Shown here: piece after piece, positions 5,614 to 40,480 of the stretch | How positions within the stretch are numbered: position 1 is the stretch's first letter | How the letters are laid out: each line of letters opens with the position of its first letter | Assembly (NCBI GenBank): GCA_000004695.1 | Contig: CM000152.2 | Span: forward strand, 5,760,001-5,824,000 | DNA from: Dictyostelium discoideum | Lineage: Eukaryota | Direction: 5' to 3' | Length of the DNA stretch: 64,000 bases | Program-made: the position numbers and the translations under genes | The notes under the pieces: generated by a model | Told to the model about the DNA's origin: nothing | The model's database searches: none | Seen by the model: only the letters and a program-made list of their open reading frames with translations

Positions 5614-6175
5614 CTACATAATCGAACATCTACAATTTCCACCACAACCCTATTTATAATATTAATAAATTAGTATTAACTTTTTTTTTTTTTTTTTTTT
5701 GGGAAATAATTAAAAATTTTTAAAACTTACACATATATCACAACCACAACCGAGGCAATCCTACAATTTTATTATTATTTTTTTTTTTTTGTCAGTATTT
5801 CCAAGTTTATTTTTTTTTTTTTATATTTTACTTTAATTTTTACTACTTACACAACCACCAGCCATAGAATATATAACTCTAATATTTGAGGATTCTTCAA
5901 TATGAAGTTTATATAATGATTTTTTATCATATCTACAAGGTAATTTTTTATTTTCCAATTCAATCTAAAAAAAAAAAAAAAAATTAATATATTAATATTA
6001 ATTTACTTTTAATATCTTAAAAAAAATAGGTTAATTTTTTACATACATTAATAAGGTGTGTGTCAGTTCCAGTTCTATCATGTATCATTTCTTTTAAATC
6101 CTCTAAAGATGTATTTTTATCATCAACATCAAAGTCAAGTGTTTCATTACTTGCTAATTTACAATGAACCTTCAT
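5614..6175 (-). CDS. Ubiquitin-like protein ending in GG, with a Cys/Gly-rich C-terminal tail and a CaaX box (copy A), 4 exons: 6047..6175, 5851..5964, 5731..5760, 5614..5649; 102 aa
   Basis: Product: MKVHCKLASNETLDFDVDDKNTSLEDLKEMIHDRTGTDTHLIN|IELENKKLPCRYDKKSLYKLHIEESSNIRVIYSMAGGC|DCLGCGCDIC|GCGGNCRCSIM*. Donors are GTATGT, GTAAGT, GTAAGT and acceptors are TTTAG, TGTAG, AATAG; all introns are phase 0. The beta-grasp domain aligns with ubiquitin, including the terminal ...GG. It ends in C-S-I-M, a CaaX box. Confidence 0.6.
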
Positions 6176-6580
6176 TTTTTTTTTTTTTATTATTTGTATA
6201 GCTTTTTATTTATTTAATTTATATTTTTTTTTTTTTCTTTAAAATTATTTATTTTAATTTCTAATTTATTGACTTTAAATATTTTTTTTTTTTAAAAAAA
6301 TAAAATAAATAATTTTTTTTTTTAAAGATCTATAAAGGAAATAAAAATTAAAAATTAATAAAAAAAAAAAATAAAATATAAAAAAAAAAAAAAATAAAAA
6401 AAAATTAAAAGAATAGATCCTTCACATGTTTGTGCATTTTGGAAAGAATTATAATTTGTATATTTTAAAAGAAAATGCAATGTTTTTTAAGGAAAAGTCG
6501 AATTATTAATTTTTATTAAATTTTTTAAAAAAAGAATTAAAAATTGTTGTTGTATTTATTATTTGAATTGGAATTTATTG

Positions 6581-6620
<40 letters not shown>

Positions 6621-7114
6621 TTAACCAAAATTGATTTTGTGGTTTTGGAATTACATGGACGAAAGAAAAACAAAAAGTAAATTTAATTTTTTTTTTTCTT
6701 TTTTTTTGATTAATTTAAAATAAAATAATATAAAATAAAATATAATAAAATAAATAAATTAAATGTATATTTTTAAAATTTGTTAATTGTCCTTTTTTAT
6801 TTTTTTATTTTTTTATTTTTTTTTTTTTTTGATTTAATAAATAGAAAAAAATTATTTTGTTGGTTGTAATTTTTTATTATTACTTTTTATTATTACTTTT
6901 TTTATTATTTCATTATAGTTATTTAAATATTTAGATTTTTATTTAATATATGATTAATTATTAAATAAAAGTGTTTAGATAATATTTGTTAAGCTTTGGT
7001 ATAAGTTTTTCTTTAAAATTTTAATAGAATTAGTAACCCTTTTATTATTGTTTAAAGTTCATTTGAGTAGATTTCTAATCTTAGAGAAAGGAAAGATTAA
7101 TCTAAGCACTATAA

Positions 7115-7150
<36 letters not shown>

Positions 7151-7177
7151 TTTTCAAGTCCTATTACTTTTTTTTTT

Positions 7178-7991
7178 TCATAAAATATAATAATCTTGAA
7201 ATCTATTTGATGAAGGTAAAGAAATACCACCTCTAACATTACTTGATAAACCCATACTACCACTAACATCAATACAAAAAATTACAAATGAATCGTCTTT
7301 TTCTTTTTCTTTTTCTTTTTCTTCATTTTTATTTTTATCAATTTCTTGATTTGTTGTGGTGGTTGTGGTGTTATTTATAATTTCAGGTTCTAAAATATAA
7401 TCTACTATATTTACCTTTGGAATTTCTTCATCATCAAGAATAATATCATCAGGTATCCAAAATGAAAGTGGTACATCAGGATTCAGTCTTTTCTCCTCTT
7501 CGCCATTAATATTAATATAGTGAAAATAGACAGACACATTAGATCTTGGACGTGGAATGGCTTCGATTTCTTCTTGAATCTTAATTTTCTACGACGATAA
7601 ATATCCTCAATCTTCTCTAATTCTAGACCATTTAAAATAAGTTTCTCTTGTTGACTGGATTCCTCTTTCTCTTTTTGTCTATTTCTTGAAGAGTTTCTTA
7701 ATTTATCCCATTCTTCACTAGTCAGCTGACTATCTTGTGTTTGTTGAGCAGTTGCAGAGCAGGCTGTAGTTGAGCAGGTTGTTGTTCAGCAGGTTGCTGA
7801 GAAGGTTGTTGAGAAGGTTGTAGAGCGGATTGTTGTTGTTCTAAAGAAAGGTCCAATATGTTTTGTTGATGTTTTCGTATAAAAAATCGCAATATTATTA
7901 ATTTTTGTTGCAAGGCAGGAAGATTCCCAGAATCAAGTTCTTCTTCTTCATCCTTGGAAGTAAAAAAATATTTTGATCCAAAATCAAACAT
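7178..7991 (-). pseudogene. Disrupted VWA-domain gene (probable pseudogene or gene fragment) between Ubl copies A and B
   Basis: Three consecutive minus-strand segments look coding but sit in three different frames. They are MFDFGSKYFFTSKDEEEEL…QPSQQPAEQQPAQLQPALQLLNKHKIVS*, then …EEWDKLRNSSRNRQKEKEESSQQEKLILNGLELEKIEDIYRRRKLRFKKKSKPFHVQDL…, then …SNVSVYFHYININGEEEKRLNPDVPLSFWIPDDIILDDEEIPKVN…DDSFVIFCIDVSGSMGLSSNVRGGISLPSS…*. The DxSGSM motif that opens a VWA/MIDAS domain is present, but the ORF stops about 25 residues later. No plausible introns join the frames. A perfect 14-bp palindrome TAGTCAGCTGACTA lies at the first frame break (about 7728..7741). Confidence 0.35.
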
Positions 7992-8332
7992 TTTTATGTT
8001 TTTTTTTTTTTTTTTTCTGAGATGATTTTGTTTTTTTTTTTCATGAAATTTTTTTTTTATTTACAGTTTTTTTGGGAAACATATTATTTTTAGGCTTAAA
8101 CATTAAAAAAAAAGGCTGCGATATTATTCTTTTTTTTTTTTTTTTTTTTTTTATTTTATTTAAATATGGAAATAAAAAAAATAAAAAAATTTATTTAATT
8201 ATTTAGAGAATAAAGAAAACAGATTATTGTTTAACTTATTTAAAAAATTTATTTATTTATTTATTTATAGAATAAAGAAAACAGATTATTGTTTATTTAA
8301 ATCTTTAATTTATTTTATTTTATTATTATTAT

Positions 8333-8394
<62 letters not shown>

Positions 8395-8406
8395 TCAGTA
8401 GTCCAA

Positions 8407-8641
8407 TTATAAAATTGTACAATGACAACCTCCACCTAAACCACAGCAATCACAACCAGCGCCACAACCACCATTAAGGTCATAGAGGACTCTAATGTTT
8501 GGGGAATCTGTTATTTTGAAATTTGATAGTTTCTTTTTATCGAATCTTGTTGGTAATTTTTTACTATCTATTTCAATCTGTAATAAAAGTTTTATAATAT
8601 TAGTAATTGATATTTATTTTTAATTCTTTTACTATTATTAC

Positions 8642-8717
<76 letters not shown>

Positions 8718-8865
8718 TAAAATAAAAAATTACAATTTGGTGTTCAATTGGAATTCCATGAAGGTTATAAATTTTTGACTTTATATCACTAATTGAATTA
8801 TTATTATCAATATCCAATTCTAATATATTCTCTTCAATATTTGGTAGTTGGCAATTAACTTTCAT
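8407..8865 (-). CDS. Ubiquitin-like GG / Cys-rich / CaaX protein (copy B), 2 exons: 8734..8865, 8407..8577; 100 aa
   Basis: Product: MKVNCQLPNIEENILELDIDNNNSISDIKSKIYNLHGIPIEHQI|IEIDSKKLPTRFDKKKLSNFKITDSPNIRVLYDLNGGCGAGCDCCGLGGGCHCTIL*. It aligns with ubiquitin (…GIPPDQQRL…[22 protein letters not shown]). The intron is GTAATT…TTACAG and contains an (AAT)n microsatellite. The terminal C-T-I-L is a CaaX box. Confidence 0.65.
8578..8733 (-). repeat. Intron of Ubl copy B carrying an (ATT/AAT)n microsatellite of about 95 bp at 8622..8716
   Basis: Perfect ATT trinucleotide run on the + strand between the GTAATT donor (8733) and the CAG acceptor (8578). Confidence 0.7.
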
Positions 8866-9356
8866 TTTTATTATCTATTTATTTTACTTTAAATAATTTT
8901 TTATTCAATTATTAAAATAAAATGTTTTTTTTTTTTTTAATTTTTAGTTTTAATTCATTTTTCAATTATTTTTTATTTTTATTTTTTTATTTTTTTTATT
9001 TTTTTTATTTTTTTATTTTAAAATAAAAAAGTCCTTTTCCCCTATTTGGAGGTTTTTTAAATTATGTTTCCTTTGATATGATCTATATTCTAAAATAGAA
9101 AAAAAAAAAATTAGATATTTTCTTAATTAAAAAAAAAAATTAAAAAAATTAAAAAAAAAATAAAATTAAAAAAAAAAAAAAAATAAAAAAAAAGCTTTTT
9201 TATACTTTTAAAGAATAAAAAAAAAAAAAAATAAATAAAAATGAAAATAAAAAATATTGTTTAATTTAAAAAAAAAAATTTCTTTTTTGAAAATGGAATG
9301 AAATTTATTTAGTTTATAAGATATTTATTTTGCACAACCCGCTGATATTTTCAAAA

Positions 9357-9425
9357 TTATTGGACAACACAATGACATCCCCCACCTAACCCCTAAGATA
9401 AAAATAGATTTTTGAATTGTATTAG

Positions 9426-9469
<44 letters not shown>

Positions 9470-9837
9470 ACATACACATATGTCGCAACCTCCTCCACAA
9501 CCACCTTCAAGGTCATACATCATTCTAATATCGGAATTTTCAGAAACTTTAAAGTTTGATAATTTCTTTTTGTCATACTTTGTTGTTAATTTCTTTTTGT
9601 CCATTTCAATCTAAAAAAAAAAAAAAAAAAAAAAGAAAAAAAAATTTTAATTAGTATAATTATTGATTAAAATTATTTTTAATATTTAATAAAATATAAT
9701 ACAATTTGGTTATGAATTGGAGTTCCGGTTTTATCAAAAATTAGGCTCTTGAGGTCATGGATTGATGTTTTTTCTGGATTTAAATCAAACTCTACGGTTT
9801 GATTTTCATTATTTGGTAAATGGCAATTAACTTTCAT
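9357..9837 (-). CDS. Ubiquitin-like GG / Cys-rich / CaaX protein (copy C), 3 exons: 9703..9837, 9476..9610, 9357..9392; 101 aa
   Basis: Product: MKVNCHLPNNENQTVEFDLNPEKTSIHDLKSLIFDKTGTPIHNQI|IEMDKKKLTTKYDKKKLSNFKVSENSDIRMMYDLEGGCGGGCDIC|GLGGGCHCVVQ*. Donors are GTATTA and GTATGT and both introns are phase 0. It ends in C-V-V-Q, a CaaX box. Confidence 0.6.
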
Positions 9838-10556
9838 TTTTTTATTTGTTTAAATTTATTATTCTTTATCTAATATTTTTTTATAAGTATGTAACAAATT
9901 TTTTGTTTTTTTAAAAAAAAATATTTGTATTTTTATTTTAATTTATATTTTTTTTTTTTTTTTTTATATTTTTAAAAAAAACCATTTTTTGACCTGTTCC
10001 CTAAATTATAAATAAAAAATAATCTATATTGTCATTTATAGTATTTTATTAAAAAAAAATTTAGATGTGTAAACCATTCTGTTTAAATTAATTGGTTTTT
10101 TTTTTTTTTTTTTAATTATTTTTTTTTTTTAACAAAACTATTAAAAAATGAAACATTACCATTGCAATTTTAATTTTAGTTTTTTTTATTTTTCCTAACA
10201 ATTCAAGTAAATTCTAAAAAATATAATAAATTAAGAAAAGGAAACTGGTTTTATGAGAATAAAAAAAAAACTATCCATTATTTTATTTTATTTTCATTAA
10301 TGTTTAAATTTTAAAAAAAATAAAAAAAGTGAAAATGGAAATATTATTTTATGAATAATTTAAAGTAACTGAGAAAAAAAAATAAAAAAAAAAAAAAATA
10401 GATGAAACACAAAAAATTAAAAAGACAAAAATAAAATAATAATAAATTGTATAATTTTAGGAATAACTTTAATTTCAATACGAAATAAAAAATTATGTAA
10501 TTTTTATTTATTTTTTATATATATAGTTAAATAGGTTTTATTTTTATAGACTTTTT

Positions 10557-10946
10557 TTATAGAATTTGGCATGAGCAACCACTTGCTACACCACCACCTC
10601 CTTCTAATGAATAAACCATTCTTAACTAATATTTAAATATTAGTATAAATTTTAAAATTAATATTAAAAAAAAAAAAAAAAAAAAAATATATATATATAC
10701 ATATATATATATTTTAAGAATAATAATTACACTTGAGTTTTCTGCTAAATGTAATTTTGATAATTTTTTATTATCATATCTATTTGATAATCTTTTTGTA
10801 TCAAATTCAATTACTTGATTTGAAACAGGTGTACCAGTTTTATAATAAATTATATTTTTTAAATCATTAATGGTGGTTTCTTTTGGATCCAAACCTTCAA
10901 ATTGGATAATCTCTTTTGTACTTGGAAATTGACAATGAACTTTCAT
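10557..10946 (-). CDS. Ubiquitin-like GG / Cys-rich / CaaX protein (copy D), 2 exons: 10731..10946, 10557..10625; 94 aa
   Basis: Product: MKVHCQFPSTKEIIQFEGLDPKETTINDLKNIIYYKTGTPVSNQVIEFDTKRLSNRYDNKKLSKLHLAENSS|LRMVYSLEGGGGVASGCSCQIL*. This copy lacks the intron that sits after QI in copies A, B, C and E. It has its own intron (GTAATT…ATTAG, 10626..10730) after ENSS instead. The ORF-track entry 10626..10946 is the unspliced read-through. It ends in C-Q-I-L. Confidence 0.6.
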
Positions 10947-11650
10947 TTTTTTTATTTTTTTATTTTTAAATTTTATTTTATGTAGGTGAAAGCTATTTAG
11001 AGATTTTAAATAATTAAAAAATTATTTATTATTATTACTATTATTTCAAAATGATTTAAGTGAATAGAAGAATTAAAAAAAAAAATAAAAAAATAAAAAA
11101 GTATTTATAGGATCAAAATTATTAAAAGAAAAATTGACCCGGTCCTCCCATTAATTCTAAAAAAGGAAAAAAAAGAGACCCGTTCAAATTTTTAAAAAAA
11201 AAAAAAATAAAAAAAAAAAAAAATTAAAAATAAAAAATTAAAAAAAAAAATTAAAAAAATAAAAAATTTTAGATCTAAGATTTTCAAAATTTTGTTTTTA
11301 TATTTATCTTTTTTATAATTATTTGAAGATCTTGTTATTGTAGATTATAACATGTATAAACTATTTAGTTTCTATTCTTTTTTTTTTTTTTTTTTTTTTA
11401 TCCAAATTTTCAGAGGGTTTAAAAAAAAAAAAAAAAAGTTTTTATTAATTTAACACATACTTAAAAATTTAAAAATAAGGTAGTATCATAAGATCTACAC
11501 CGAAAAAAATCTTAAAGTAAAAAATACTTTACATAATTTTTATTATTAATTCTTTTTTTAAACACTTTATTTATTATTTTTTTTTTTTTAAAACCTTTTT
11601 TTTTTTTTTTTTTTTTTTTTTTGATTCTACTAAAATTAACTTTTTAAAAA

Positions 11651-12053
11651 CTATAAAATTTGACATACGCATTCACCACCACCAAAACCACATAAATCAC
11701 ATTCACAACAAGACCCACCCAAATCATATAAAATTCTAATATTTGTTGACTCTATAACTTTGAATTTTTTTAATTTAAATTTATCATGTTTTTGAGACAA
11801 TTTTTTATTATTTAATTCGATCTATATAATTTTAAATAAAATAAAATTAAAATCTTTTAATTTTAAATAAAATAAAATTAAAATCTTTTTAAAAAAAAAA
11901 ACTAATAATTTAAACACTTACAATTTGCATATCTATTGGTATTTTTTCTTTTTCATATATAAAACTTTTTAAAATATAAATAGTTGGATCAATTTGTCCA
12001 TTCATATCAAATTCTAATATTTTATCTGTTGGTAGTAAACATTTAATAATCAT
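11651..12053 (-). CDS. Ubiquitin-like GG / Cys-rich / CaaX protein (copy E, most divergent), 2 exons: 11922..12053, 11651..11821; 100 aa
   Basis: Product: MIIKCLLPTDKILEFDMNGQIDPTIYILKSFIYEKEKIPIDMQI|IELNNKKLSQKHDKFKLKKFKVIESTNIRILYDLGGSCCECDLCGFGGGECVCQIL*. The intron is GTAAGT…TATAG and phase 0. It ends in C-Q-I-L. Confidence 0.6.
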
Positions 12054-12492: not shown

Positions 12493-12774
12493 TTATTTCT
12501 TTTTCTTCATAGCTTGTTTACCTTGACCTTTCTTAATTTCTGGTTTACCTCTTTGTTGATCTCTTTCACGAGTTTCTACCTTTGTGAGTGCTTTATCATC
12601 TGTATTACCAATCATATGTCTTGAAATTAATGGTTTTGAATAATATTGAGTTAAATAATCACCAATTAATGGTTTTCTAAGATATTTTAAACCCATATTT
12701 GGACTACCTTCTGGTCTAAATCCAAAAATTCTTAATGATGCTGAATATGCACTTTGTAATTGTCTTGCAATCAT
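12493..12774 (-). CDS. Mitochondrial ribosomal protein mS33 (MRPS33 / yeast Rsm27 family), 93 aa
   Basis: MIARQLQSAYSASLRIFGFRPEGSPNMGLKYLRKPLIGDYLTQYY… aligns with yeast Rsm27 (…[34 protein letters not shown]…) and human MRPS33 (…SRLSARLFGE…). The C-terminal basic tail GKPEIKKGQGKQAMKKKK also matches. Recalled from memory with no search. Confidence 0.6.
   Translation of the reverse strand: MIARQLQSAYSASLRIFGFRPEGSPNMGLKYLRKPLIGDYLTQYYSKPLISRHMIGNTDDKALTKVETRERDQQRGKPEIKKGQGKQAMKKKK

Positions 12775-35938: not shown

Positions 35939-40480
<4,542 letters not shown>

Follow-up and report, generated by a model that had tools for sequence, protein, structure and literature searches.

The stretch of DNA analysed here, referred to below as the window, comprises 64,000 nucleotides (nt) of the Dictyostelium discoideum genome (GenBank assembly GCA_000004695.1, contig CM000152.2, positions 5,760,001 to 5,824,000) and is extremely AT-rich. 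Five tandem genes, corresponding to D. discoideum AX4 DDB_G0282435 to DDB_G0282445, lie on its minus strand at positions 5614-12053 and encode small proteins with a ubiquitin-like (Ubl) domain, a Cys-rich tail and a C-terminal CaaX box. The exons, introns and intron phases of all five were rebuilt from the sequence, and coordinates are given in window numbering on the minus strand. Copy A (5614-6175, DDB_G0282435, 102 amino acids (aa), C-terminus CSIM) has four exons at 6175-6047, 5964-5851, 5760-5731 and 5649-5614. Besides intron 1 (6046-5965) it carries two tail introns, T1 (5850-5761, after GGC) and T3 (5730-5650, after DIC), which delimit a 30-nt mini-exon 3 (5731-5760, phase 0 at both ends, DCLGCGCDIC) and a 36-nt terminal exon (5614-5649 including the stop codon, GCGGNCRCSIM*) that supplies the CaaX box. 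Copy B (8407-8865, DDB_G0282439, 100 aa, CTIL) consists of exons 8865-8734 and 8577-8407 separated by intron 1 (8733-8578), with no tail intron. Copy C (9357-9837, 101 aa, CVVQ) has exons at 9837-9703, 9610-9476 and 9392-9357, intron 1 at 9702-9611 and a tail intron T3 at 9475-9393; its last exon is 36 nt long (GLGGGCHCVVQ*). Copy D (10557-10946, the DDB_G0282443 locus, 94 aa, CQIL) lacks intron 1, and its two exons (10946-10731 and 10625-10557) are separated by a sole intron at 10730-10626, which falls within the final Ubl beta-strand (ENSS|LRM); its tail is about 10 residues shorter. Copy E (11651-12053, DDB_G0282445, 100 aa, CQIL) resembles copy B, with exons 12053-11922 and 11821-11651, intron 1 at 11921-11822 and no tail intron.

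All eight introns in the window are in phase 0, start with GTA and end with AG, are 81-156 nt long and contain 5-13% G+C, and the spliced coding sequences are open. A CTRAY branch-like motif (mostly TACTAAT) was found 14-40 nt before the acceptor in six of the eight. Across 47 introns of the family the commonest donors are GTAAGT or GTATGT and the commonest acceptor is TAG; the tail introns follow the same usage (GTAAGT or GTATGT donors, TAG acceptors) and carry TACTAAT or TACTGAC branch-like motifs. The initial annotation had placed a phase-0 intron directly after (H/M)QI in copies A, B, C and E. Its position and phase hold in all four, and the motif does not hold for copy A, where the flanking sequence reads HLIN|IELE at the homologous position. 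Two of these first introns have changed in AX4: that of copy B (8578-8733) is enlarged to 156 nt by a long (TAA)n run and measures 70-90 nt in other species, and that of copy E (11822-11921) contains a tandem duplication of about 36 nt, with AAAAGATTTTAATTTTATTTTATTTAAAATT present twice.

The rebuilt proteins of copies A, B and E match XP_640048, XP_640050 and XP_640053 exactly, and for copy C the identical protein is KAM9964096, which comes from a different D. discoideum assembly; the exact-protein look-up gave no match to the copy C model among the AX4 reference proteins. In the AX4 annotation of copy D (DDB_G0282443, 104 aa) the donor is a GTATAT lying 30 nt further 3', and VIIILKIYIY is thereby added to the last beta-strand (10701-10730). 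The conserved donor is ENSS|GTAATT, and the 94-aa model, annotated in three other species, is also supported by another D. discoideum assembly. The rebuilt models bear out the earlier description of copies B, D and E as having no tail intron, and together with the species comparison below they establish that the paralogs differ by the real presence or absence of introns.

The tail mini-exons were compared in four species (D. discoideum, D. citrinum, D. firmibasis and D. dimigraforme). The three relatives of D. discoideum carry all five genes in the same order and with identical intron positions and phases, and the mini-exons have the same lengths and boundaries in their arrays, the lengths (30 + 36 nt in copy A, 36 nt in copy C) being invariant. 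Nine of the ten variable codons in the copy A mini-exons are synonymous: exon 3 has three synonymous variable codons and one AX4-specific C-to-L change, and the terminal exon has six synonymous and no nonsynonymous ones. The two tail introns of copy A vary from 68 to 169 nt across species and are about 62-70% identical where alignable. Retention of any tail intron would yield a short, species-specific peptide (for example VSSKN*, VSFKNF* or VCLI*) with no Cys at position -4 and no CaaX box, while splicing restores the conserved tail and CaaX box in all four species. This indicates that the tail mini-exons of copies A and C are real coding exons that evolve under purifying selection and without which the CaaX end would be missing. 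The two tail introns and the 10- and 11-codon mini-exons of copy A were thus described correctly from the start (exact XP_640048 match, same structure in three other species), and so was the single tail intron of copy C (DIC | GLGGGCHCVVQ), which is matched by KAM9964096 and conserved in the four species.

If instead the mini-exons were gene-prediction artefacts, the messenger RNAs (mRNAs) would read into the supposed introns and end early, at ...GGCVSSKN* in copy A and ...DICVCLI* in copy C. Exact-protein look-ups for the family proteins did return genomic contigs only and no complementary DNA (cDNA) or RNA-seq contigs, and the missing exact match to copy C among the AX4 reference proteins also speaks for this view. 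However, the read-through peptides vary by species and never place a Cys at -4, the spliced tail with its CaaX box is conserved in four species with invariant exon lengths and mostly synonymous substitutions, and the tail introns have consensus donors, acceptors and branch-like motifs. Nor is the copy C read-through protein ...DICVCLI*, which the initial annotation had named as the outcome that would undo its model, present in the protein collection; this peptide is not conserved and has no Cys at -4. We regard an artefact as scarcely credible. At positions 5752-5754 in copy A exon 3, AX4 has CTC (Leu) and D. citrinum, D. firmibasis and D. dimigraforme have TGT (Cys), so that one conserved tail cysteine is removed in AX4 (DCLGCG versus DCCGCG). 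The 30-nt exon (5731-5760) is symmetric, so that an mRNA lacking it would remain in frame, retain the CaaX box and encode a short tail like that of copy D.

AlphaFold2 predicts a ubiquitin beta-grasp for residues 1-78, where block-mean predicted local distance difference test (pLDDT) values are 85-92 as far as residue 70 and fall to 73 over residues 71-80; the tail is unstructured (pLDDT <50). In Foldseek comparisons with ubiquitin, which gave the best PDB matches, the target-normalised template-modelling (TM) score was 0.81-0.91, the root-mean-square deviation 1.4-2.5 Å and the identity about 20%. A family profile matches ubiquitin at E ~2e-6 and aligns its Gly-Gly with ubiquitin G75-G76 (copies A, B, C and D). 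With the Pfam ubiquitin model PF00240, copy D scores 27.6 bits (gathering cut-off 25.4), copies A, B and C fall below the cut-off at 17.8-19.7 and copy E gives no match. The UBL3/MUB model PF13881 (Rad60-SLD_2) has no match at E<=1 in any of the five proteins, and the best 60 PDB matches of the family profile are ubiquitin, its fusions or variants, and none of these chains is named UBL3 or MUB. The proteins do not keep the LRGG cleavage context (SMAGG, DLNGG, DLDGS), and the copy E orthologs have DGS in place of GG. The tail of 22-24 residues with 8-9 Cys is conserved as one unit across Dictyostelia, with the sequence GGCDCCGCGCDICGCGGNCRCSIM common to C. fasciculata, T. lacteum, D. purpureum and copy A. 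The CaaX boxes of copies A to E (CSIM, CTIL, CVVQ, CQIL and CQIL) are kept in all orthologs.

The CaaX rules predict farnesylation of -CSIM and -CVVQ, and geranylgeranylation of -CTIL and -CQIL. The conserved tail with a Cys at -4 would come from the fully spliced mRNA only, and the predicted prenylation, and hence membrane anchoring, would depend on this Cys; both steps are proposed here from the C-terminal motifs. These proteins may represent a type of lipid-anchored Ubl peculiar to dictyostelids; alternatively, they may be precursors that release a Cys-rich peptide on cleavage after GG.

The family was found only in Dictyostelia. A whole-library profile search returned mostly polyubiquitins among its best 150 matches and no relative with the same architecture outside Dictyostelia; within these 150 only family members from P. 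violaceum and H. album were added. An NCBIfam search of the family gave no match, and in the literature on Dictyostelium ubiquitin-like, CaaX/prenylated or metallothionein proteins we found no paper on the family or its six DDB_G identifiers. The sixth D. discoideum paralog, DDB_G0293906, is unlinked to the array.

The array is anchored upstream by an MRP-S33 gene (12493-12774, minus strand; Pfam PF08293, E=2.5e-10), and the gene order at the locus is MRP-S33, copies E, D, C, B and A, and a SNARE gene. The region between MRP-S33 and the SNARE gene contains one family member in T. lacteum; in P. violaceum a tandem pair adjoins MRP-S33, and the five-gene array of D. firmibasis is again flanked by both anchors. 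D. dimigraforme and D. citrinum have the SNARE gene after copy A, and no MRP-S33 gene is called upstream of their arrays. Since the T. lacteum and P. violaceum orthologs also sit beside MRP-S33, the array arose at an old locus, where one ancestral dictyostelid gene was duplicated in tandem.

The intron positions were mapped across the relatives. Intron 1 is present in C. fasciculata, H. album (corrected model, described below), both P. violaceum genes, D. purpureum, DDB_G0293906 and copies A, B, C and E, and absent from T. lacteum and copy D. An intron in the last beta-strand (beta5) is found in H. album, T. lacteum, both P. violaceum genes and copy D, and is absent from C. fasciculata, D. purpureum, DDB_G0293906 and copies A, B, C and E. 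The beta5 intron of copy D is in phase 0 exactly eight codons before GG, as it is in H. album, T. lacteum and P. violaceum. Copy D had been reported to lack the first intron and to have a unique one after ENSS; the structure is confirmed, and the uniqueness applies only within the array. The tail is interrupted after GGC and after DIC in copy A, after DIC in copy C and DDB_G0293906, after GGCDCCG in C. fasciculata, before a 15-nt CNIL* exon in H. album and by two phase-1 introns in D. purpureum, which lie 4 nt from T1 and 1 nt from T3. No tail introns are present in T. lacteum, in either P. violaceum gene or in copies B, D and E. By position and phase the third intron of copy A equals the second intron of copy C (T3, DIC|G), an equivalence absent from the initial annotation. 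The tails of copies B and E are collinear with that of copy C without a gap at the T3 site, and about 8-10 codons are missing from copy D exactly there. The tail coding sequence contains 39-51% G+C versus 17-27% in the Ubl part. In a neighbour-joining gene tree with bootstrap, each paralog clade is supported at 98-100%, (B,E) at 94% and (C,(B,E)) at 95%.

Taken together, these data make it probable that the five-gene array derives from one ancestral gene with intron 1 and beta5, that the differences among paralogs are old and mostly the loss of ancestral introns, and that the mini-exons are constitutive. The ancestral gene at the locus would have encoded a ubiquitin-fold domain, Gly-Gly and a Cys-rich tail of about 22 residues ending in CaaX, and would have had two phase-0 introns, intron 1 after ..HQ(I/L) and beta5 before the last beta-strand. 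The beta5 intron of copy D is taken as ancestral because it shares position and phase with those of P. violaceum, T. lacteum and H. album. T3 (after ..CDIC) was presumably in place before the group-4 paralogs separated; it is common to copies A and C and DDB_G0293906 and would therefore predate the separation of all three. The second tail intron T1 (after GGC) would belong to the copy A lineage. Beta5 would have been lost in copy A and in the ancestor of C, B and E, and intron 1 in copy D, which alone in the array kept beta5, and also in T. lacteum. T3 appears to have been lost once and without a gap in the ancestor of B and E, because these form a clade within (C,(B,E)) and their tails are collinear with copy C. 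Because about 8-10 codons are missing at the site, T3 is absent from copy D, possibly through an imprecise intron loss by deletion. All these changes would precede the divergence of D. discoideum, D. citrinum, D. firmibasis and D. dimigraforme.

In B and E, gene conversion by reverse-transcribed mRNA may have removed the 3'-most intron without leaving a gap. In D. discoideum 441 precise intron losses have been described, biased away from the 5' end and with G+C-richer flanking exons, which was taken as support for the reverse-transcription model, and intron gains in Dictyostelium are far rarer than losses (Ma et al., 2015; PMC4683709). The B/E loss of the 3'-most intron, in the G+C-richest part of the gene and with the 5' intron kept, fits this cDNA-mediated pattern. 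The array offers a compact and well-resolved case in which the copies keep complementary introns, D keeping what the others lost and losing what the others kept; the process itself is a known one, and the array is a neat but ordinary example of it in an unstudied dictyostelid family.

Several points weigh against this history, in addition to the transcript-derived contigs that were not found. The gene models of the relatives are predictions whose sole support is the recovery of the conserved tail, and that of H. album was corrected here. The introns are too AT-rich and too diverged for direct homology, and intron identity is therefore judged by position and phase alone; in local alignments of paralog and ortholog introns against shuffles, z was mostly -0.9 to 3 (one pair reached 5.7), and the values are apparently driven by homopolymers. 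The placement of copy D in the tree is weakly supported (D with B, C and E 38%, D basal 25%), so that the number of group-4 beta5 losses may be one or two. Finally, gain and loss of the tail introns T1, T2 and T4 are not separable with seven lineages.

The beta5 introns of copy D, P. violaceum, T. lacteum and H. album could also be independent parallel insertions at a favoured site. Retention from an ancestor requires at least two or three losses (in C. fasciculata, in copy A/DDB_G0293906/D. purpureum and in B/C/E), the introns have no detectable sequence similarity (z -0.8 to 1.9), and parallel intron gain is known elsewhere, for example in Daphnia. Such insertions would, however, have hit an identical position and phase in four lineages spanning groups 2 and 3, the violaceum complex and group 4, and the exon contexts there differ (AGT|TTA, AAT|GTT, AAT|ATT, AAT|ATA and ATG|CTT), none of them being an AG|G proto-splice site. 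With losses far exceeding gains in Dictyostelium (PMC4683709), we consider parallel gain unlikely and retain a single ancestral beta5 intron.

The initial annotation had read the array as a record of recent intron gain and loss and the Cys tail as an assembly of exon modules that arose by duplication or shuffling of Cys-Gly units. The paralogs do differ in intron content, the copy A tail is split into 10- and 11-codon exons, and all introns are in phase 0, which makes the exons symmetric and in principle shufflable. But the paralog intron patterns are fixed in four species, where they are identical, and with paralog clades at 98-100% bootstrap the turnover is not recent. As for the modules, the tail is intronless in T. 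lacteum and P. violaceum; it is cut within the copy A exon 3 region in C. fasciculata, within the exon 4 region in H. album and out of phase in D. purpureum; and GGCDCCGCGCDICGCGGNCRCSIM is conserved whole across Dictyostelia. Exons 3 and 4 of copy A score 9 for similarity against a codon-shuffle mean of 8.3 (p=0.40), which does not support exon duplication. Recent turnover with modular assembly is thus very unlikely. The comparison indicates that the introns interrupted a pre-existing conserved tail motif and are not borders of building blocks.

The distribution of introns along the gene is uneven. The 72-nt tail contains six distinct intron positions in five lineages (after GGC, 4 nt beyond that site, after GGCDCCG, after DIC, 1 nt beyond that site and before the CaaX box); counting each of the two near-coincident pairs once gives four. 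The 234-nt Ubl part contains two. The binomial probability of this clustering is about 0.003 (0.03 with the pairs merged), from a test chosen after seeing the data. The H. album tail intron leaves the CaaX box alone on its 15-nt terminal exon. In D. purpureum DICPUDRAFT_41498 (L002 572-690) the two phase-1 tail introns are spliced to a protein that nevertheless recovers the conserved tail exactly; they are a candidate case of intron sliding. A tentative and rather doubtful idea is that, within Dictyostelia, the 72-nt Cys/Gly-rich coding region acts as a hotspot where introns insert or slide, and the (TGT/GGT)n codon context may drive the clustering. If true, this small family would offer a rare and tractable example of introns being gained or sliding repeatedly in a loss-dominated genus. 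The crowding of introns in the tail is the only unusual feature of the family.

Differential loss from an ancestor with many tail introns (T1 to T4) could produce the present scatter with no gain or sliding, in line with the dominance of loss in Dictyostelium (PMC4683709) and with T3, which is clearly common to copies A and C and DDB_G0293906. That ancestor would need about six introns in a 300-nt coding sequence, with exons of 12-27 nt; T2 and T4 each occur in one lineage only; and the D. purpureum phase-1 introns, offset by 4 nt and 1 nt, are not producible by loss alone. Loss as the only process in the tail is therefore highly improbable.

The comparison also corrected several database models besides the donor of AX4 DDB_G0282443. 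H. album PPL_06719 (589 aa; GL290988.1, L009 4001-4467) is a Ubl gene fused to the downstream RNase HII gene. The model misses a 62-nt GTAAGT..TAG intron and the 15-nt terminal exon TGTAATATTTTATAG (CNIL*), and the fusion arose because this CaaX exon was missed; after correction the gene product has 97 aa, and the CaaX box stands alone on the last exon. D. dimigraforme ACTA71_010371 (L006 10001-12806) is a chimera in which copy C exon 1 is joined to copy A exons 2-4, and in D. firmibasis (L001 7081-8114) the model of the MRP-S33 gene has wrongly taken in copy E (7732-8114).

Between copies A and B, the region 7178-7991 on the minus strand holds two broken open reading frames (89 aa, and 119 aa with a DVSGSM motif), neither with a significant Pfam match. 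The spacer between B and A is much shorter in D. firmibasis and D. dimigraforme, and in D. citrinum it contains a 6.4-kb insert with a 1289-aa gene; it is a variable region that possibly holds a gene remnant. A sixth copy in the window at 37279-37344, suggested by a weak tblastn match to the Cys-Gly tail, was rejected as a (GGTTGT)n simple repeat.

Compared with precise intron loss in Dictyostelium (PMC4683709), the array is alike in that B and E lost the 3'-most intron without a gap and kept the 5' one, in that the exon sequence around the lost introns is richer in G+C than any other in the gene, and in the excess of losses over gains. It differs in that tandem paralogs and not orthologs are compared, with the mechanism read from the pattern, and in that copy D shows the reverse, the 5' intron being lost and an internal one kept. 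Intron sliding or parallel gain elsewhere in eukaryotes is the closest likeness for the D. purpureum tail introns, which lie 1 nt and 4 nt off and in the other phase, and for the several lineage-specific positions crowded into 72 nt; here, unlike in those systems, the events are deduced from positions, as the intron sequences carry no signal. The proteins themselves recall the Ub-eL40 and Ub-eS31 fusions, with a ubiquitin fold, GG and then a short Cys-containing extension, and some family-profile matches continue into the extension of Ub-eL40; the extension of the family, however, is not a ribosomal protein and ends in CaaX, and the LRGG context is not conserved. The MUB/UBL3 proteins, which are membrane-anchored and prenylated via a C-terminal CaaX, share with the family a small ubiquitin-fold domain and a Cys-containing C-terminus with CaaX, from which lipid-anchored Ubls are predicted here too. 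The Dictyostelium family, in contrast, has no PF13881 match and is closest to ubiquitin in sequence and fold, and it has Gly-Gly at ubiquitin positions 75-76 and a much longer tail with 8-9 Cys, in Dictyostelia only. The five proteins probably work like membrane-anchored Ubls, though they are not UBL3/MUB by sequence. With its ubiquitin fold, GG and Cys-rich CaaX tail, this unstudied family may deserve attention as a lipid-anchored Ubl distinct from UBL3/MUB.

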